From contig JAYGED010000241.1 in the NCBI GenBank assembly GCA_046582565.1, forward strand, positions 1,071 to 65,070: a stretch of 64,000 nucleotides of DNA. The letters are read 5' to 3'. Both the position numbers and the translations under genes were made by a program. The first letter of the stretch is position 1. The number at the start of each line of letters is the position of its first letter. Under the pieces are notes generated by a model. It had not been told where the DNA came from, ran no database searches, and saw nothing but the letters and a program-made list of their open reading frames with translations. This DNA is from Alphaproteobacteria bacterium. GTDB lineage: Bacteria > Pseudomonadota > Alphaproteobacteria > JAAXGF01. This document shows, piece by piece, positions 11,527 to 30,638 of this stretch.

Positions 11527-12777
11527 ATGACCGGTGTCGGTTTGACCACGGGACCGTTCGATGCCGCCGCCTTCGGCGAGATCACTCTGCCGTTTAGCCG
11601 TGACGAATATCTCGGCCGGATCGCCAAGCTGCGCGGCGCCATGCGCGACGAGGGCATCGACTTGCTGTGGGTGACCACGCCCGAGGCGGTGTGCTGGCTG
11701 CATGGCTTCGCCTCCAGTTGGTACAAGGGCAATGCGCCGATGCGTTATCCCCAGTGCTACGGCACGGCGATCTGGGCTCATGACGAGCGCTTCATCTACT
11801 TCGACAACCCGACAGAGGAGCCGGTGGTGGCGCGGACTTCGATCAGTGAGGACAACCGCTGGCTGCCCGACCGTGAGGCCGAACCCAATCTGCGCTTTAT
11901 CTTGGACGAGCTCGAGCGCGAGGGCTGGCTCGGCGGCACCGTCGGCATGGAATTCTGGAGCTACGTGCCCAACCGGGCCATCAGCACCATGTTCGAGGGT
12001 GGGTTCCTGTCTCATGGTGGTCGGGTGGTCGACGCCAGCGCCATGGTGCGCCGCGCCCGCCGGGTCAAGTCGACGCAAGAACTCGTCTATGTGGAAAAGG
12101 CCATGGAGATTTGCGACATCGGCCATCAGACAATTGTGGAAAACCTCAGGCCGGGCATCACCGAGCTTGAGCTGTTTGGCCAGGTCATGGCGGCGATGAT
12201 GGCGGCTGGCGGCGAGTTTCCGGCGCTGATCCCGATCTTCAATACCGCGCCGGTGGTTGACGGCCATCCCCAGTCGAACGGACACGCTCTGGCGGGGCGC
12301 AAGGTGATCGAGGCGGGCGAGTTGCTGACCACCGATCTGTGTGGTGTTTTCAACCGCTATCATGCCAACGCCGAACGGGGCTACTACGTGGGCGACAACC
12401 CGCCGGCGGCATTGGTCGAGCGCTATAGGCTGGCGGCCGGAGTGTTTGACGTCATCGCCAGCGATGTCAAAGCCGGTATGACCGTGCGCGAGGTTAACAC
12501 TCGGCTACGGCGCTATTACGAAGACGTCGGCATTTGGACTGAGAGCGAGGGCTGGGCGCTGGGCTACGAACTCGGCCTCAGCTTTCCGCCCGACTGGGTT
12601 GGCGATTTTTACTTCCACCTGGGCGACGACAAGTATCTCGACCGGGTATTCGAGGAGAATATGGTGACCAACTTCGAAAGCCTGTTCAACACCGCCCTGA
12701 TCGATACCCTGATCTACGGCAAGGACGGGACGCGAGTGTTGTCGAAAACGCCACGCAAACTGATCGCCGTAGGTTGA
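11527..12777 (+). CDS. M24-family metallopeptidase/amidohydrolase (creatinase/prolidase N-domain + M24 catalytic domain)
   Basis: 416 aa; creatinase-N-like N-terminus and pita-bread M24 domain with conserved metal-ligand region (HGxGxxxHE-type); paralog of 12826-14088. Confidence 0.7.
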   Translation: MTGVGLTTGPFDAAAFGEITLPFSRDEYLGRIAKLRGAMRDEGIDLLWVTTPEAVCWLHGFASSWYKGNAPMRYPQCYGTAIWAHDERFIYFDNPTEEPVVARTSISEDNRWLPDREAEPNLRFILDELEREGWLGGTVGMEFWSYVPNRAISTMFEGGFLSHGGRVVDASAMVRRARRVKSTQELVYVEKAMEICDIGHQTIVENLRPGITELELFGQVMAAMMAAGGEFPALIPIFNTAPVVDGHPQSNGHALAGRKVIEAGELLTTDLCGVFNRYHANAERGYYVGDNPPAALVERYRLAAGVFDVIASDVKAGMTVREVNTRLRRYYEDVGIWTESEGWALGYELGLSFPPDWVGDFYFHLGDDKYLDRVFEENMVTNFESLFNTALIDTLIYGKDGTRVLSKTPRKLIAVG

Positions 12778-12825: not shown

Positions 12826-14088
12826 TCAGCCGACGCCCTGCAGCTCGAGCGGAGTCTTGGACAGGATCCGGGTGGCGTCCGGGCCGTAGACGCAGGTGTC
12901 GACCAGCCAGGTATTGAACATGCTTTCGAAGTTGGTCACCATATTCTCCTCGAACACGCGATCCAGCCCCTGCTCGTCACGGACGTGGAAGTAGAAATCG
13001 CCGACCCAGTCGGGCGGCAGACTGAGGCCGAGCTCGTAGCCCAGCCCCCAGCCCGGCTTGTCCCACAGGCCGACGTCCTCGTAGTAGCGGCGCAGGATGG
13101 CGATGACCTGGCGCACGGTCATGCCCGCCTTGACCTCGTTGGCGATGACGTCGAAAACACCGGCCGCGGTGCGGACGTTTTCCATCATTGCCTTGGGCGG
13201 GTCGCCGACCACGTATCCGCGCTGCACATTGGCGTGGTAGCGATAGTAAACCCCGGCGATGTCGATCTTCAGGAAATCGCCGCTTTCGATGACTTTGCGG
13301 CCCATCATGGCGTGGCCGGCGGCAATCGGCCGGCCGTCGCGGATCGGCGACGAGGTGAAACTGTGGACCAGGGCGGGAGACTCACCGCCCGCCGCCATCA
13401 TCGCCCGCAAGGTCTCGCCATAAAGCTCGAGCTCGGTCATGCCGGGCCGGGCCAGGTCGCGGACCGTCGCATGGCCGATATCGGCGATCTCGGCGGCCTT
13501 CTCGATGTGAGCGATCTCGGCCGGCGACTTGACCAGCCGGAGGCGGCGCACCAGGGCGCTGGCGTCGACCATCCGGCACCCTTCGGCGAGAAAGGCGCCT
13601 TCCAGCATGGTGCTGACCGCCCGGTTCGGCAGATAGCTCCAATGCTCGAGCCCGACAGTACCGCCGAGCCATCCCTTGGCCCTCAACTCGTCCATGATGA
13701 AGGCCAGGCAGGGGCCGGCGTCGCGCGACGGGAAGAAGCGGTTGTCGGTTGACACCGAGGTCTTGCCGAGCACCGGCAACTCGGTCGGGTTGTCGAAGTG
13801 AATGAAGTCGTCGGAATCGACGCGGATCGCCGTGCCGTAGAGTTGCGGATAGCGCATGGGGCTGCTGGCCTTGTACCAGCTCGCCACATAGCCATGGAGA
13901 TAGGCGACATGGTCCGGTGCCGTGACATACAGCAGGTCGATGTTGTGCGCCGCCATGCCTGCCCGCAGCCTGCGGATGCGCTCGAGGTACTCTTCGCGCG
14001 GGAAGGCGAGATCGCGGTACTCGGCGGGCCATTCCTCGACAGCGCCAGGCGTCAATCCGGTATAGGCCTCGGTATCTACGGTCGTCAT
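12826..14088 (-). CDS. M24-family metallopeptidase/amidohydrolase, convergent paralog of 11527-12777
   Basis: 420 aa, ~55-60% identical to neighbour over full length (e.g. VFEENMVTNFES, LSKTP..L..VG* shared C-terminus); GGGGGAGG RBS. Confidence 0.7.
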   Translation of the reverse strand: MTTVDTEAYTGLTPGAVEEWPAEYRDLAFPREEYLERIRRLRAGMAAHNIDLLYVTAPDHVAYLHGYVASWYKASSPMRYPQLYGTAIRVDSDDFIHFDNPTELPVLGKTSVSTDNRFFPSRDAGPCLAFIMDELRAKGWLGGTVGLEHWSYLPNRAVSTMLEGAFLAEGCRMVDASALVRRLRLVKSPAEIAHIEKAAEIADIGHATVRDLARPGMTELELYGETLRAMMAAGGESPALVHSFTSSPIRDGRPIAAGHAMMGRKVIESGDFLKIDIAGVYYRYHANVQRGYVVGDPPKAMMENVRTAAGVFDVIANEVKAGMTVRQVIAILRRYYEDVGLWDKPGWGLGYELGLSLPPDWVGDFYFHVRDEQGLDRVFEENMVTNFESMFNTWLVDTCVYGPDATRILSKTPLELQGVG

Positions 14089-19468: not shown

Positions 19469-19545
19469 TGGCGCGCCCGGCGGGATTCGAACCCACGACC
19501 CCCAGATTAGGAATCTGGTGCTCTATCCTACTGAGCTACGGGCGC
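19469..19545 (-). tRNA. tRNA-Arg (anticodon CCT)
   Basis: Reverse complement GCGCCCGTAGCTCAGTAGGATAGAGCACCAGATTCCTAATCTGGGGGTCGTGGGTTCGAATCCCGCCGGGCGCGCCA folds as cloverleaf: acceptor GCGCCCG/CGGGCGC, anticodon loop TTCCTAA, T-loop TTCGAAT, encoded CCA. Confidence 0.9.
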
Positions 19546-24727: not shown

Positions 24728-25603
24728 TCACTCGGGCCAGCGGCGGTGCAGCCATAGCCATTGTTCGGGGCGGGCGCGGATCCAGTCTTCGATCACGGCG
24801 TTGACCTGGCCCATGACGGCGGCTACGTCGGCTTTGCGGTCGCCGCTATCGGGCAGGGTCAGGGGCGGATAGACGGTGAGGCGGAAATGCGCGCCCTCGA
24901 GCCGCTCGACCCGCGCCGGCACTACCGGGCAGCCATATTTGAGCGCGAGCTGGGCCAGAGCCGGTGCGGTCATGGCGTCGCGGCCGAAGAACGGCACGGC
25001 GATGCCTTCGTTGAGTTTCTGGTCGATCAGCATGCCGAGATGGTCGCCGCGGGAGATCGCACGAATGAGTTGTTTGGCGCCGGCGGACCCCTTGGGGAAA
25101 TTGCTCCCGCCGACCGGGGCGCGGAGGGATTGCAGCACCGGTTCCATCAGGGGGTTATTGGGGCTGCGGTAGATCTGGGTCAGCGGAACGCCGTTCTGGG
25201 TCGCGCCGAGGGAAGCGATTTCCCAGTTGCCGAGATGGGCCGAGAAGAAGATGCCGGATTTCTGGTCGTCGCGTAAGAGTTCTACATTCTCCACGCCGAC
25301 CACGTCGACCCGCCCGGCCGGATCGGTCACGTCGATCTTGCCGAGATGGGCATATTCGGCGGCGACGCGGCCGAGATTATCCCACATGCCCTGGATAATA
25401 GCCTCGATTTCGCCGGATGATTTATCCGGGAAGGCATGGCCAAGGTTGCGCCGGGCGGTGTGGCTGACCGCCAGCCGGGGACCGATCGCGCGGGCCAGAC
25501 GGCCGCCGAGAGCCGACGCCCTGTCCAGCGACAGCATGGCGAACAGGCACAGCAGAAGCCGCGCCGAAGCCGCTTCCAAGGCATGCATCAGGCTTTTGAT
25601 CAT
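24728..25603 (-). CDS. lpxL: lipid A biosynthesis late (lauroyl/myristoyl) acyltransferase, LpxL/HtrB family
   Basis: N-terminal TM, HxxxxD-type LPLAT motif region (FSAHLGNWEI), family length 291 aa; operonic with lpxK/waaA. Confidence 0.8.
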   Translation of the reverse strand: MIKSLMHALEAASARLLLCLFAMLSLDRASALGGRLARAIGPRLAVSHTARRNLGHAFPDKSSGEIEAIIQGMWDNLGRVAAEYAHLGKIDVTDPAGRVDVVGVENVELLRDDQKSGIFFSAHLGNWEIASLGATQNGVPLTQIYRSPNNPLMEPVLQSLRAPVGGSNFPKGSAGAKQLIRAISRGDHLGMLIDQKLNEGIAVPFFGRDAMTAPALAQLALKYGCPVVPARVERLEGAHFRLTVYPPLTLPDSGDRKADVAAVMGQVNAVIEDWIRARPEQWLWLHRRWPE

Positions 25604-26568
25604 AGGCGGAACTCGTCGAGCAGACGATCCAGCGCCGAGGGGTCGCGCCAGGCGATTTCCACGGCCAGAGCCTCGACCATGGCTTTGGCCTCGATGGGCA
25701 GGCGCACATGATCTTTCTCCGTGGTCACCGCCACGGCGCCTTGCGCGGTTGCCGCTTCGACCAGGATCATGACGTCGTCGGCGCTATAGGGGTGATGATC
25801 GGCAAACTGCTGGGCGCCGATCAACGTGCATCCCATGGTCTCCAGGGTGGCAAAGAATTTCTGAGGATGGGCGATGCCAGCGAAGGCCAGCACCTTCTGC
25901 CCGGCCAGAGAGGCGCTATCGGCGGTCGGCGTCAGGGCGCCATGGAGTATCGGCTTGGAGAAACCGGCTAGACTGTCCTGCCAGCCTTCACCCTCGCCCA
26001 TAATCACGACCCCGTCGGCGCGGGCCAGTCCCGGGGCCACAGGCTCGCGCAGGGGCCCGGCGGGCAGCAGCCGGCCATTGCCGAAACCGTAATCGCCATC
26101 GATCACCACCAGGGACAAATCCTTGACCAGGGACGGGTTCTGAAAGCCGTCGTCCATGACGATGATCTCGGCGCCGTCCGCCACCGCGGCCTGCGCCCCA
26201 TGGGGTCTGTTGCGGGCCACCCAGGTCGGCGCGCGGGCGGCCAGCAGTAAAGGCTCATCGCCCACGGTTGCGGCGTCATGCTGGGCGGGATCGACCCGGA
26301 GCGGCCCAGCGGCGCTGCCGCCATAGCCCCGGCTGAGGAAATGTACCGACCGGCCGCGCTCGATCAGCCGTTGGCCGAGGCTGAGGGCGACCGGCGTCTT
26401 GCCCGCGCCGCCGGCTACCAGATTGCCGATACAGACCATCGGGCAGGCCGCCCTTTGCGGGCGGGCCAATCCGCGCCGGACAGAGGCCAGCGCCCCGTAG
26501 CTCCAGGCCAGCGGGCTGAGCAGTGCCGCCGCCAGCCCGTCGTAGCGCCAAAAATCCGGCGCGCGCAT
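25600..26568 (-). CDS. lpxK: tetraacyldisaccharide 4'-kinase
   Basis: P-loop GNLVAGGAGKTP, conserved LpxK core; overlapping start/stop with neighbours. Confidence 0.88.
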   Translation of the reverse strand: MRAPDFWRYDGLAAALLSPLAWSYGALASVRRGLARPQRAACPMVCIGNLVAGGAGKTPVALSLGQRLIERGRSVHFLSRGYGGSAAGPLRVDPAQHDAATVGDEPLLLAARAPTWVARNRPHGAQAAVADGAEIIVMDDGFQNPSLVKDLSLVVIDGDYGFGNGRLLPAGPLREPVAPGLARADGVVIMGEGEGWQDSLAGFSKPILHGALTPTADSASLAGQKVLAFAGIAHPQKFFATLETMGCTLIGAQQFADHHPYSADDVMILVEAATAQGAVAVTTEKDHVRLPIEAKAMVEALAVEIAWRDPSALDRLLDEFRL

Positions 26569-27851
26569 CAGGGCCCGCCGTCCTTGATCGTGGGGACAAG
26601 ATAGGGCTCGATCGCCGCCGCGATGCGCTCAAGCACCCCGGCCTCGGCCTCGGCCACGACGCGCGCCGCCGCCATGAGCCGCCGGCGCTCATCGCCATTA
26701 TCGAGCAGGCCGCCGACCGCCGTGGCCAGGTCCTTGCCGCCGGCGACTTCGATAGCGCCCCGGTTGGCGGCGAAGGCGGCGGTGAAGGCGGCGAAGTTCG
26801 CCATATGGGGGCCGTGCAGGATGGCGCAATCCAGGCGCGCGGGCTCAAGCAGGTTCTGGCCGCCATGGGGCACCAGGGAGCCGCCGACGAAAGCGATATC
26901 CGCGAGGCGATAGAACAGGCCGAGCTCGCCCAGGTTGTCGGCCATATAGATATCCGTAGCCTCGGTGATGGCGTCTCCCGCCGAGCGCAGGGCCACTGTC
27001 AGGCCGAGATTGCGAAGCCCCGCCGCGATGGTCGGCCCCCGCTCGGGATGGCGCGGCGCAATGATCGTCAGCAGCCCCGGGTGATCAGCCGCCAGGGCGC
27101 TATGACAGGCGGCGGCGATGGTCTCTTCGCCGGCATGGGTGCTGGCTGCAAGCCACCGGGGGCGCGTTCCCACCGCGCCTCGCAATGCATCGTACGCCGC
27201 CTCATCGACGGGCAGCGCCGGGCCCGCTGATTTCAGATTGCCGACGGTGAGAACCTGCGCCGCACCCAGGTCGCGCAGCCGCTCGGCGTCCTGTTCGCTC
27301 TGGGCGAGACACAGGGCAAATCCGCCGAGCAGGCGGCGGATCACGCCGCGCATGAGTAGCCAGCGCCGATAGGAGCGGTCCGACATGCGGCCGTTGACCA
27401 GGATCATCGGCACACCGCGCGCCTGGGTGTCGGCGAGCAGATTGGGCCAGAATTCGGATTCAATCCAGATCGCCAGGTCGGGCCGCCAATGATCGAGGAA
27501 GCCGCGCACCGCGTCGGGCCGGTCGATGGGGGCGTACTGGTGGAGTGCGCGCGCCGGCAAGCGCTCGGCCATGAGCTGCGCCGAGGTCACCGTGCCGGTG
27601 GTGACCAGCAGTTGCAGCTCGGGGTGAGTTTCCTGGATGCGCCCGATGAGGGGCAGGGCGGTGAGGGCCTCGCCGACGCTGGCCCCGTGTATCCATACCA
27701 GCCGCCCCTGGGGCCGTTCGGCGCCGGCGACGCCGAGGCGTTCGCGGAAGCGCTTGGGATCTTCCTTGCCAGCATCCTTTCGCCGCCTCAGATAAAGCGC
27801 GATAAGCGGCGTCGCCAGCACGGTCATGGCGCGGTACAGGCGTTGCATCAT
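26568..27851 (-). CDS. waaA: 3-deoxy-D-manno-octulosonic acid (Kdo) transferase
   Basis: N-terminal TM anchor, GASVGE motif and C-terminal GT-B glycosyltransferase region typical of KdtA/WaaA. Confidence 0.85.
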   Translation of the reverse strand: MMQRLYRAMTVLATPLIALYLRRRKDAGKEDPKRFRERLGVAGAERPQGRLVWIHGASVGEALTALPLIGRIQETHPELQLLVTTGTVTSAQLMAERLPARALHQYAPIDRPDAVRGFLDHWRPDLAIWIESEFWPNLLADTQARGVPMILVNGRMSDRSYRRWLLMRGVIRRLLGGFALCLAQSEQDAERLRDLGAAQVLTVGNLKSAGPALPVDEAAYDALRGAVGTRPRWLAASTHAGEETIAAACHSALAADHPGLLTIIAPRHPERGPTIAAGLRNLGLTVALRSAGDAITEATDIYMADNLGELGLFYRLADIAFVGGSLVPHGGQNLLEPARLDCAILHGPHMANFAAFTAAFAANRGAIEVAGGKDLATAVGGLLDNGDERRRLMAAARVVAEAEAGVLERIAAAIEPYLVPTIKDGGP

Positions 27852-28552
27852 GGCAGGGGCTCTGGCTCGATCGCTGTCTGGCCGACCAGCCGGTCGGCCT
27901 CGGCGGTGACCGCGTTGAGCGCCTGCTCGACGGCGCGCCGGGTGGCTTCGCCGGCGGCCTCGCCGCCGTCACGGGCCGGCGGCTCGATCGGGGCGCCCCA
28001 GACGAAGACCCCCCGGCTGAACGGCAGGGCGAGAATGAAACGATCCCAACTGCCCAGCACCCGGCGGCGCGAGGTGGCGTAGGCGACCGGCAGTATGGGC
28101 GCGCCCGACAGCCGGGCGAGATCGGCGATGCCGCCGCCCGCCCGCATGCGCGGCCCGCGCGGCCCATCCGGTGTAATGCCCACGGAGCCGCCCCCCTTGA
28201 GGCTGCGCAGCATGGTGCGCAAGGCCGCCGAGCCACCCCGGCTGGTCGACCCGGCGATGGTTCCAAGGCCGAAATAGCCCACGGTACGGGCGATGAGCTG
28301 GCCGTCGCGATGGTGCGAGACCAGCAGCTCGATGGGTTTTTCCCGCCGCCAGCTATAGGGCAACAGCAACAATCGGCCGTGCCAGAAGGCGACGATGAAA
28401 GGCTCGTCCCGGTCCCATAGGGCGGCGGCATGCTCTGCGCCTTCCACCCGCCAGCTGCTGGTGCCATGAACCAGTCGGATATACAGCGCCGCCATGGCGC
28501 AGAGGACGCCCCGTACCGCTTCGTTGCGCAACACCGGCTTGAGAAATTTCAA
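27848..28552 (-). CDS. DUF374/lysophospholipid-acyltransferase-like protein commonly linked to waaA in Alphaproteobacteria
   Basis: 234 aa; conserved FWHGRLLLLP / GITPDGPRGP segment; non-ATG (TTG) start in ORF track, start uncertain. Confidence 0.6.
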   Translation of the reverse strand: MKFLKPVLRNEAVRGVLCAMAALYIRLVHGTSSWRVEGAEHAAALWDRDEPFIVAFWHGRLLLLPYSWRREKPIELLVSHHRDGQLIARTVGYFGLGTIAGSTSRGGSAALRTMLRSLKGGGSVGITPDGPRGPRMRAGGGIADLARLSGAPILPVAYATSRRRVLGSWDRFILALPFSRGVFVWGAPIEPPARDGGEAAGEATRRAVEQALNAVTAEADRLVGQTAIEPEPLP

Positions 28553-28571
28553 GGCTTGATACTCTTCGCTT

Positions 28572-28834
28572 ATACCAGCTTGCGATGATAGGGACCCATT
28601 TCACCGGGATTATTTTGCCCGAAGGCAAGGCGCGCTTTGCGCCGTAGTGCCCCCCACTTCAAGCGAAGCGCAACGCGGCATTCGGGCAAAAGAACCCGGC
28701 CTCCGGTGGCATGAAACCGGCCATCGGGTGCGTTGCGACGCTTGCCCGATACGAGGTATCGCGCTGCGCAACGCGCCTGCCCGAATGGCCGGTTTGATGC
28801 CATGAAATGGGTTCCTATCATCGCAAGTTGGTAT
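28572..28834. mobile_element. MITE/REP-like structured element: 32-bp terminal inverted repeats (2 mismatches) flanking ~200 bp with at least three further nested inverted-repeat pairs
   Basis: Left arm ATACCAGCTTGCGATGATAGGGACCCATTTCA (28572-28603) vs reverse complement of right arm (28803-28834); internal pairs TTTTGCCCGAA/TTCGGGCAAAA and TGGCATGAAACCGGCCAT/ATGGCCGGTTTGATGCCA; fills msbA-DUF374 intercistronic gap and abuts msbA stop. Confidence 0.7.
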
Positions 28835-28835
28835 C

Positions 28836-30638
28836 TCAGGCTTGTGCGCGCGCGACGCTGTTGTCTTCCACATTGTCGGCATACTGCATGAGATACATCC
28901 GGGCATAGGCGCCGTTCTGGGCGATCAGCTCTGCGTGGCTGCCCTGTTCGGCGACGCGGCCATCGACGACAAAATAGATCACATCGGCCTCGACGATGGT
29001 CGATAGCCTATGGGCGATGACCAGGGTGGTGCGGCCTTTCATGAGGGTGGCCAGGGCGTCCTGTACGATGCGCTCGGACTCGGAATCGAGCGACGATGTG
29101 GCTTCGTCGAGCAACAGGATCGGCGAGTTTTTCAACATGGCGCGGGCGATGGAGATGCGCTGGCGCTGACCGCCCGACAGCTTGACCCCATGCTCGCCGA
29201 CGATGCTGTCGTAGCCGTCGGGCAGGGCGGTGATGAAATCATGCGCAGCAGCGCCGCGCGCCGCCGCGACGATCTCGTCGTCCGTGGCGGCGATCCGGCC
29301 ATAGGCGATGTTGTCGCGCACGGAGTCGTTGAACAGGCTGACTTCCTGGCTGACCAGGGCGAGGCAGGCGCGCAGGGATTTCAGGGTGACTTCGCGCAGA
29401 TCGACGCCGTCGATGCTCACCGCGCCCGAGGCGACGTCGTAGAACCGCGGGATCAGGTTGAGCACGGTGGATTTGCCGGCCCCCGAAGGTCCGACCAGCG
29501 CGGCCGTGCCGCCCGCCGGTACGGTCAGAGTGATGCCGTTCAGCGCGGGCGCGCCGCCGTGGTAGGTGAAATGCACGTCGTCGAAGGTGATGCTCCCCTT
29601 GGATACAGCCAGTTCGTCGGCGCCGGGCTTGTCGGTGATGTCCGGCTCTTCGTCGAGCAGGGCATAGACCCGCTGGGTGGCGGCCAGGCCTTCCTGCAGG
29701 TTGGCGTTGAGGTTGGCCAGGCGCTTCATGGGCTCGTAGGCGAGCAACAGGGCGGTGATGAAGGACATGAACACCGGCATGGTGGTGTTGCCGGCGATGA
29801 CTTGCGATCCGCCATAGAAGATCACCACGGCGATGGCGATACCGCCGAGGAACTCCATGATCGGGCTGGACAGGGAGCGCACGCGAAGCGCCTTGAAGAT
29901 GATGGCGAACAGGCCCTCGACGATCTCGCCGCCGCGCTTAACCTCGTGGGCCTCCATGCCATAGGCCTTCACATGGCGGGCACCCTGGAAGGTCTCATTG
30001 AGATAGGCGGTCAGCTTGGAGACCTGTTCAAGGCCGCGGGCCGAGACCTTGCGCATGCGTTTGCCGATCTTGACCACCGGCAGCACGGCGACGGGAAACA
30101 CGAAGAAGGCGATCAGGGCGAGCGCCCAATCTCGCCAAAACATCACGGCCACGAGAAACGCCACCTTGAGGAAATCCAGCGCAATGCCGGTGAGCGCCGT
30201 GGAGACCGCGGCGCGCATCATGTTCACGTCGTTGGTGAAGCGCGAGATCAGGGTGCCCGTCTCGGTGTTGTGGTAGAAAGCGAGGTCGGCGTCCATGAGA
30301 TGGGCGAACAGGCGTTTCTGCAAATCGGCGATGATGCGCTGGCCGACGTAATGCATGAGCACCGCCTGGCCGTAATTGGCCCCTGAGCTCAGGGCAAACA
30401 CCGCAACCACCGCCAGCGGTAGGGCTAGCAGCATGGCCTCGTCCTTGTTCTCGAAGACCTCGCTCAGCACCGGCTCGATGAGCCAGGCGAGCGCCGCCGT
30501 GGTCGCCGCGACCACCACCATGCAACAGCCCGCCAGCACCAGACGCCCCACATGGGGCCGCACTTCTTCGCGCACGATCCGCCCGACCAGGTCGCGGGTC
30601 GATAGATGCGCAGGGCTCGCTGGGGTCTCTTCAGTCAC
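28836..30638 (-). CDS. msbA: lipid A export ABC transporter permease/ATP-binding protein
   Basis: Six-TM ABC exporter domain + NBD (Walker A GPSGAGKST, LSGGQRQR, Walker B ILLLDEATS); position in lipid A late operon; GTG start. Confidence 0.85.
   Translation of the reverse strand: MTEETPASPAHLSTRDLVGRIVREEVRPHVGRLVLAGCCMVVVAATTAALAWLIEPVLSEVFENKDEAMLLALPLAVVAVFALSSGANYGQAVLMHYVGQRIIADLQKRLFAHLMDADLAFYHNTETGTLISRFTNDVNMMRAAVSTALTGIALDFLKVAFLVAVMFWRDWALALIAFFVFPVAVLPVVKIGKRMRKVSARGLEQVSKLTAYLNETFQGARHVKAYGMEAHEVKRGGEIVEGLFAIIFKALRVRSLSSPIMEFLGGIAIAVVIFYGGSQVIAGNTTMPVFMSFITALLLAYEPMKRLANLNANLQEGLAATQRVYALLDEEPDITDKPGADELAVSKGSITFDDVHFTYHGGAPALNGITLTVPAGGTAALVGPSGAGKSTVLNLIPRFYDVASGAVSIDGVDLREVTLKSLRACLALVSQEVSLFNDSVRDNIAYGRIAATDDEIVAAARGAAAHDFITALPDGYDSIVGEHGVKLSGGQRQRISIARAMLKNSPILLLDEATSSLDSESERIVQDALATLMKGRTTLVIAHRLSTIVEADVIYFVVDGRVAEQGSHAELIAQNGAYARMYLMQYADNVEDNSVARAQA

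Follow-up and report, generated by a model that had tools for sequence, protein, structure and literature searches.

The window, that is, the whole 64-kb stretch of DNA analysed here (64,000 nucleotides), contains a lipid A operon on its minus strand, in which a palindromic element of 263 bp lies between msbA and a DUF374 gene. The features of this locus are listed below in the order of transcription; coordinates are positions in the window, and sense refers to the minus strand, which is the mRNA sense.

28836-30638, minus strand: msbA (gene call)
28836-28838, minus strand: msbA stop codon TGA, 1 nt from the element (gene call)
28572-28834, minus strand: whole element, 263 bp, ATACC...GGTAT (terminal repeats, folding, homologous copies)
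28573-28833, minus strand: transposed unit if the 3-bp duplication model holds (flank comparison)
28803-28834, no strand: terminal inverted repeat, msbA-side arm, the 5' arm in mRNA sense (inverted-repeat scan)
28707-28802, no strand: internal hairpin B, first in mRNA sense (inverted repeats, folding, copy comparison)
28698-28706, no strand: 9-nt linker joining hairpins A and B, sense CCGGAGGCC (folding)
28607-28697, no strand: internal hairpin A, second in mRNA sense, with a branched, non-palindromic apex (inverted repeat and folding)
28572-28603, no strand: terminal inverted repeat, DUF374-side arm, the 3' arm in mRNA sense (30/32 match; covarying positions)
28553-28571, minus strand: native msbA-DUF374 spacer kept 3' of the insertion, sense AAGCGAAGAGTATCAAGCC (aligns with the 18-nt spacer of the relative L040)
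28550-28552, minus strand: DUF374 start codon TTG (gene call)
27848-28552, minus strand: DUF374 gene, 234 aa, PF04028 (called gene)
26568-27851, minus strand: waaA (gene call)
25600-26568, minus strand: lpxK (gene call)
24728-25603, minus strand: lpxL (gene call)

Along the transcript, the element begins 1 nt past the msbA stop codon, as the initial annotation had stated, and the TTG start of the DUF374 gene lies 19 nt past its distal end. Its terminal arms, of 32 nt each and 199 nt apart, are 94% complementary (30/32). No second site for the arm was found in the 64-kb window with up to three mismatches, and shuffled sequences are expected to yield 0 matches. The inner motif of the element ends is GATAGGNACCCATTTCA, and the msbA-side arm (28803-28834) includes the letters TGATAG within one reading frame. 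Either strand folds much more stably than its dinucleotide shuffles, with energies of -157 kcal/mol for the minus strand (shuffle mean about -104; z -10.7) and -168.8 kcal/mol for the plus strand (mean about -101; z -13.1), and 0/200 shuffles as good in either case. These results uphold the description of a 263-bp palindrome bounded by 32-bp terminal inverted repeats. The further internal inverted-repeat pairs are likewise present; they are not nested concentrically, as had been claimed, but form two tandem hairpins of about 90 nt, over which the terminal stem closes to give a Y. The longest sense frame is open in only 6/11 complete copies of the element (see below) and a comparable frame is open in antisense, indicating that coding capacity is not conserved; the gene-caller products of separate copies differ through frameshifts.

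We investigated the same junction in related genomes, with which the window shares the gene order HpaB-LysR-msbA-DUF374-waaA-lpxK-lpxL. In six loci (L040-L045) the synteny is kept and the msbA-DUF374 site is empty, with gaps in four of these relatives of 18 nt (MsbA 92% identical), 9 nt (90%) and 3 nt (82%), and an overlap of the two genes in the fourth (81%). The spacer of the closest relative (L040), TGA CACCGAGAGTATCAAGCC TTG, aligns with that of the window, which reads TGA GA, then the element, then TAAGCGAAGAGTATCAAGCC TTG. Taxonomic labels were broad, with MsbA homologues of 62-70% identity labelled 'Alphaproteobacteria bacterium' and L001, a further locus carrying the element, labelled 'Proteobacteria bacterium'. 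The exact MsbA and WaaA proteins of the window were identified on contigs of 11 samples, all of which carry the element at this site with 98.5-100% identity. This copy thus appears to have entered an 18-20-nt spacer just 3' of the msbA stop codon, and only in the lineage of the window. For annotation, this means that the long msbA-DUF374 gap is here a recent insertion and not a regulatory region, in a lipid A operon that is otherwise tightly packed.

These data also bear on whether the palindrome could be an assembly artefact or have arisen by chance. Assemblers did make chimeric joins at the repeat (L024, L025, L028 and L051), and four contigs (L027, L029, L034 and L037) end inside the msbA copy. 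However, the same 263-bp insert was recovered at the same site from 11 samples independently and by different assemblers, homologous full copies exist elsewhere, and shuffles give 0 expected matches for the arm, so that we regard an artefact or a chance palindrome as having a negligible probability. In three independent assemblies (L024, L025 and L028), msbA and the 5' part of the element are fused to the 3' end and flank of another copy, which lies beside an M20-peptidase gene in L011; these are mis-joins through the repeat and so link this second copy to the same population. The copy in L051 (1364-1626) is considered chimeric because its two terminal arms are not complementary. Thus, the repeat both breaks and mis-joins the metagenome contigs of this organism, and can corrupt metagenome-assembled genomes (MAGs) and could mislead binning and synteny analysis.

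We identified copies of the element, 88-97% identical, at approximately 17 unrelated loci in a Proteobacteria MAG and in marine metagenomes, so that the element is multi-copy and dispersed. One genome per species was scanned with the inner arm sequence as query, and the single match came from the Proteobacteria MAG of L001, where a full copy of 90% identity lies 3' of a cytochrome b561 gene and similarity to the window is confined to the element. Directly after this copy (L001 6779-6894), the sequence corresponds to an inner stretch of a glutathione S-transferase-like gene (...GDFLFGHFTAA) without its N-terminal part, so that the edge of the element may mark a truncation or rearrangement. A metagenome scan gave 18 loci, including L012, which is from the same strain as the window; five of the 18 (L004, L010 and L017-L019) were discarded as chance matches inside coding sequences of organisms of lower GC content (37-52%). 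Finally, a search of protein collections with the spurious 83-codon ORF of the element recovered 16 gene-caller products from further copies, six of which were examined as DNA (L047-L052), the other ten being identical to no examined locus.

Full copies of 88-96% identity with unrelated flanks are found in L001, L007, L016, L047-L050 and L052, and partial copies lie at contig ends in L002, L003, L006, L009, L011 and L014. L008 has a short form that retains hairpin B as its sole hairpin, and L005 and L013/L015 have remnants. According to Pfam, the genes beside the copies are real and unrelated between loci, with neighbours including FliP, a TPR protein, peptidase M3, ABC1 kinase, DapD, an M20 peptidase, a pseudouridine synthase, SCO1, ribosomal protein L17, a trypsin-like protease, AsnC, MshEN, a K+ channel and AspRS, among others; the sites include positions 3' of fliP, dapD, rplQ and pepF. 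L011, L012 and L014 stem from one metagenome, and at least two full copies are linked to the species of the window, namely the msbA copy and the M20-peptidase copy of L011. The partial copies in L014 (3' of dapD) and L011 (5' of an M20/dapE-like gene) do not overlap and may be the two halves of one copy. The insertion of the dapD copy may be older, since a single metagenome (JGI 3300047521) yielded both the empty msbA site of L040 and the dapD-copy contig L051.

Several copies depart from the common form. The short form (L008 10867-11027), also from the metagenome of the window's strain, comprises approximately 160 bp of terminal repeats and hairpin B and lies at the TAA stop codon of a SCO1/SenC gene. 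An extra piece matching part of hairpin B was found 57 nt upstream of the full copy in L048 (2237-2293). A 227-bp copy in L052 (486-712) is without the apex of hairpin B, and abuts the end of an IS6-family (DDE_Tnp_IS240) transposase gene (1-426). The dapD and pseudouridine-synthase ORFs of L014 (149-165) and L006 (153-169), respectively, enter the terminal repeat by 17 nt and end at TGATAG, so that the repeat encodes the final five codons and the stop of the upstream ORF.

The initial annotation had also considered a structured RNA or an attenuator of the lipid A operon, and a cis-regulatory attenuator, terminator or stabiliser evolved for msbA would indeed agree with the occupation of the whole msbA-DUF374 gap by an element that would be co-transcribed. 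In contrast, the same junction is empty in relatives with MsbA 81-92% identical, and the element is found in unrelated contexts, including unrelated operons. We found no terminator, defined as a GC-rich stem followed by a U-tract, on either strand of the element. A promoter scan gave only one weak sigma-70-like match, in antisense, the -10 of which is not conserved among copies. Rfam 15 gave no match in the element at the gathering score, and at E<=10 only two plant or animal miRNA-precursor hairpins far below threshold. The proposal of an attenuator or structured RNA of this operon accordingly finds no support, and we judge a regulator evolved for msbA to be extremely unlikely.

Every copy begins with ATACC and finishes with GGTAT, and each of the complete copies has the terminal inverted repeats. 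Taking TACC...GGTA as the unit and three bases on each side as flanks, we found the flanks to be identical on both sides in eight complete copies, as direct and not inverted repeats. These are TAA/TAA in L001, L007, L047, L048, L049 and probably L008 (in which the 3' end is degenerate), TGA/TGA in L016 and TTA/TTA in L052. Unequal flanks (in sense) were found in the window copy (AGA/TAA) and in L050 (TTA/TAA), as well as in the dapD copy (AAA/TTA), if L014 and L011 are its two halves. As the non-TAA flanks also agree from side to side, they point to a 3-bp TNA duplication rather than to a fixed terminal sequence, and the matching flanks are best read as the duplication of a 3-bp TNA target. 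Deleting one repeat gives sensible junctions, such as GTC TGA GCC ATG from fliP to the next gene. The stop codon of the preceding gene doubles as the upstream duplicate in L007, L008, L016 and L047; the SCO1 proteins of L008 and L044, which are homologues, terminate at the same residue.

A preference for TNA and 3-bp repeats have been described for the IS1031 group of the IS5 family (PMC12016507), and a DDE transposase that duplicates 3 bp at TNA most likely acted in trans to move the copies. We found no autonomous element or transposase with these ends in the window, in approximately 390 kb of the loci or in the plasmids of PLSDB. A search of PLSDB for a parent IS with the full element or a 63-nt end gave no match, and the match in a viral scan was due to chance. 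The transposases beside the element in L045 (DDE_Tnp_1_4) and L052 (IS6-type) were rejected as sources, being of other kinds and having unrelated ends. The former is a 449-aa protein encoded at L045 2943-4292, 98 nt from a diverged relative of the element with which it shares no terminal repeat. In a GC-rich genome, TNA would mostly be found in stop codons and in the A/T-rich bases 5' of ribosome-binding sites, and the position of the copies at gene ends and tight operon junctions would follow from where such sites lie.

The element is thus probably one copy of a non-autonomous DNA transposon, or MITE, of uncultured marine Alphaproteobacteria, and was most likely moved by a DDE transposase with duplication of a TNA target. 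It has the features of bacterial MITEs, being small and non-coding, with terminal inverted repeats, dispersed copies, a target duplication and filled as opposed to empty sites, and is a MITE by the working definition save for a known autonomous partner. The MITE alternative of the initial annotation is therefore the one borne out by the multiple dispersed copies, terminal repeats, 3-bp duplications and the empty sites of close relatives. The family appears to be undescribed, a literature string search with the terminal repeat having given no match and no similarity in sequence to a described family having emerged, and its kind is an ordinary one. Several observations argue against this reading. 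The flanks of the window copy (AGA/TAA), of L050 and of the dapD copy (if L014 and L011 are its halves) show no duplication; no autonomous element with these ends was found in the sequences searched; the outer terminal repeats vary with compensatory change (7 pairs), unlike a simply conserved transposase-binding site; and the strict co-orientation with genes described below is not predicted by DDE cut-and-paste on a target that can be used on either strand.

The compensatory changes were identified by aligning 14 copies in sense, and 94.5% of cells in this alignment agree with the window-copy fold. Both partners are altered in twelve pairs (27 cells), a value of 27 being reached in 0/500 shuffles, with 1-8 cells in slid controls. 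The initial annotation had proposed a covariance analysis across msbA-waaA intergenic regions, and covariation is present across these dispersed copies. Seven of the 12 covarying pairs lie at positions 6-15 of the terminal stem, and a smaller alignment set agrees. These counts were made on the window-copy structure, in place of an RNAalifold consensus that was poor when partial copies were included because of their gaps.

An nhmmer search additionally recovered a diverged relative at L045 2583-2845, which repeats the 32+199+32 = 263 layout and again folds into a Y (-157.6 kcal/mol; z -10.3); its lower stems are wholly different yet paired. The parts conserved between it and the main subfamily are the inner arm (CCATTT[C/G]A-TGG), the linker CCACCGNAGGCCG and the apical half of hairpin B. 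It starts with GAG..., ends with ...CTC and is flanked by CTA/TTA. The kept pairing and the rewritten stems fit selection on a folded nucleic acid, RNA or DNA alike. Stem departures across the copies produce G:U in 12 columns versus A:C in 15, and this lack of preference for G:U over A:C indicates that pairing is equally good in DNA and RNA; the sense and antisense strands fold equally well, with similar loop composition.

Such a pattern raises the possibility of an element moved as a folded single strand, either a RAYT-mobilised REPIN/REP-like element or a palindromic derivative of an IS200/IS605 element. Elements of these types are recognised by their hairpins and not by their end sequences, and they insert in a strand-specific manner relative to replication. 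Nearly the entire element is hairpin, its stems covary, including the terminal one (12 pairs, 27 cells), the diverged relative matches its geometry exactly with stems that are rewritten, DNA pairs as well as RNA, and the bias in gene orientation could mirror a replication-strand bias. However, eight copies have matching 3-bp repeats of three different sequences, and HUH/Y1 transposition gives no duplication; 32-bp terminal inverted repeats are foreign to IS200/IS605 ends; there is no fixed tetranucleotide at one end only; and no Y1 transposase was seen in the small part of the sequence that was screened. We consider movement as a folded single strand to be improbable.

In the main subfamily, the sense strand of the element is the coding strand of the upstream gene in all 11 of the 11 loci in which a gene ends beside it, and of the downstream gene in 12/12. 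The sole other arrangement in this subfamily is a divergent upstream neighbour (L003, L013 and L052), and the single contrary copy is the diverged one of L045, which is antisense to an upstream peptidase S8 gene and lies beside an unrelated IS. We evaluated several candidate causes of this co-orientation, and rejected each of them. The strand of the target does not account for it, as flanks are mostly TAA yet TTA also occurs (on both sides in L052 and at single ends in L005, L006, L011 and L013), indicating that the TNA target is used on both strands. Nor does a bridging ORF that would hold ribosomes on the inserted sequence (sense frame open in 6/11 copies, antisense comparable), an RNA strand signature (given the G:U and A:C counts of 12 and 15 columns), or promoters and terminators, for which the scans gave no explanation. 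We found no strand asymmetry in folding energy or in loop composition, such as C-rich Rho sites in antisense. A replication-linked insertion bias or an orientation-dependent polarity is a possible cause.

The co-orientation would also agree with a mobile structured-RNA gene or module that acts in sense, for example as a processed stable RNA or an operon-compatible spacer, and for which DNA mobility is secondary. As well as the agreement of the sense strand with the coding strand (11/11 upstream and 12/12 downstream), the 32+199+32 layout, the junction, the linker and the apex of hairpin B persist despite the rewritten lower stems, and at tight junctions copies end in AAGGGGG or GGGGGG 2-13 nt before start codons. 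On the other side, there is no Rfam family at the gathering score and no bounding promoter or terminator in sense; G:U columns (12) do not exceed A:C columns (15), and the two strands fold equally with similar loops; the L045 copy is antisense to its upstream gene; and close relatives have no element at msbA. Such an RNA module is, on balance, very unlikely. An insertion by a MITE remains our preferred reading.

A broader suggestion, which we put forward speculatively and hold to be unlikely, is that the family is a structure-constrained, strand-specific mobile module, and more than a decaying selfish MITE. This would imply either a strand-specific intermediate or a single orientation that is compatible with operon expression, for instance through a self-folding spacer that brings the upstream stop and the downstream start together, and one sub-lineage might then supply a Shine-Dalgarno sequence (AAGGGGG) at the 3' end of the element. 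The tight-junction copies with AAGGGGG or GGGGGG ends are those of L002, L007, L009, L011 and L016, and copies whose downstream gene retains its own ribosome-binding site end in CTGG, TTGG or GTGG. From the sequences, the former ends could be a supplied Shine-Dalgarno sequence, or only a marker of a sub-lineage.

As there is no terminator between msbA and the DUF374 gene, the two are likely to be co-transcribed across the insertion. The window copy is presumably transcribed with msbA, and its RNA would fold on itself into a closed Y module that leaves the DUF374 ribosome-binding site accessible. For the DUF374 start region, a mean unpaired probability of 0.52 is predicted in the presence of the element, versus 0.43 and 0.45 without it (in the element-free relative and after deletion in silico, respectively), so that occlusion of the ribosome-binding site by the element is not predicted. 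Given this predicted self-folding and accessibility, the effect of the element on the lipid A operon is expected to be neutral or mild, and is probably so. Long perfect stems in mRNA are substrates of RNase III, and by analogy this enzyme might cut the long stems of the element and uncouple msbA from the downstream genes. RNase III cleavage has been proposed for the stem-loops of Correia elements, and ERIC elements influence mRNA stability according to their orientation (PMC2229807).

Finally, we compared the element with known families of small bacterial repeats. It resembles IS1031-group MITEs of the IS5 family in being short and non-coding, with terminal inverted repeats and 3-bp TAA, TGA or TTA (TNA) repeats, and the diverged relative in L045 additionally has GAG...CTC ends. 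GAG termini are typical of the IS1031 group. In contrast, the ends of the main subfamily are TACC...GGTA and not GAG, the repeats are of 32 bp versus approximately 17 bp, the outer positions of the repeat covary and are not conserved, and no cognate transposase or full-length IS was found in the searches described above.

REPINs, which consist of REP units of 20-40 nt, reach approximately 100 nt at most and are not known to duplicate their target. The element is like REP/REPIN sequences (RAYT) in forming hairpins, in being multi-copy, intergenic and often just 3' of genes, and in the compensatory changes of its stems, and differs from them in its length of 263 bp, its 3-bp duplications and its 32-bp terminal repeats. 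Because of the duplications and long terminal repeats, neither the REP/REPIN definition nor that of an IS200/IS605 derivative fits the element.

Correia elements duplicate TA and occur in both orientations, and RIMEs (Rhizobium-specific intergenic mosaic elements) are built from two large palindromes. The latter are, like the present element, alphaproteobacterial intergenic repeats, and the element gave no match in the PLSDB plasmids, which are rich in Rhizobium replicons. Correia/NEMIS elements of Neisseria (100-160-bp class) are similarly MITEs with inverted repeats that form long stem-loops when co-transcribed (PMC2229807), whereas the present element has a Y-shaped interior of two hairpins and an orientation bias. 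The ERIC/IRU elements of enterobacteria and Yersinia are likewise intergenic palindromic repeats co-transcribed with flanking genes, and differ in their length (approximately 127 bp), single hairpin, other phylum-level host range and occurrence in both orientations. The orientation-dependent mRNA stability of ERIC is a precedent for selection that depends on orientation (PMC2229807). Going by the general features of these families, the element would be distinct from ERIC, Correia and RIME. Of the RIME/ERIC-like architecture proposed in the initial annotation, the MITE kind thus stands.

The element adds a MITE family of uncultured deep-sea Alphaproteobacteria that is wedged exactly between the stop and start codons of operons, and its co-orientation and kept architecture make it a natural system for asking what makes an insertion within an operon tolerable. 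Two further features of the window were observed. The large inverted repeats of 70-79% identity that a whole-window scan returned are due to a pair of convergent paralogous Peptidase_M24/Creatinase_N genes (11527-12777, plus strand, and 12826-14088, minus strand), and the sole Rfam match in the window is a tRNA gene at 19472-19545 on the minus strand.
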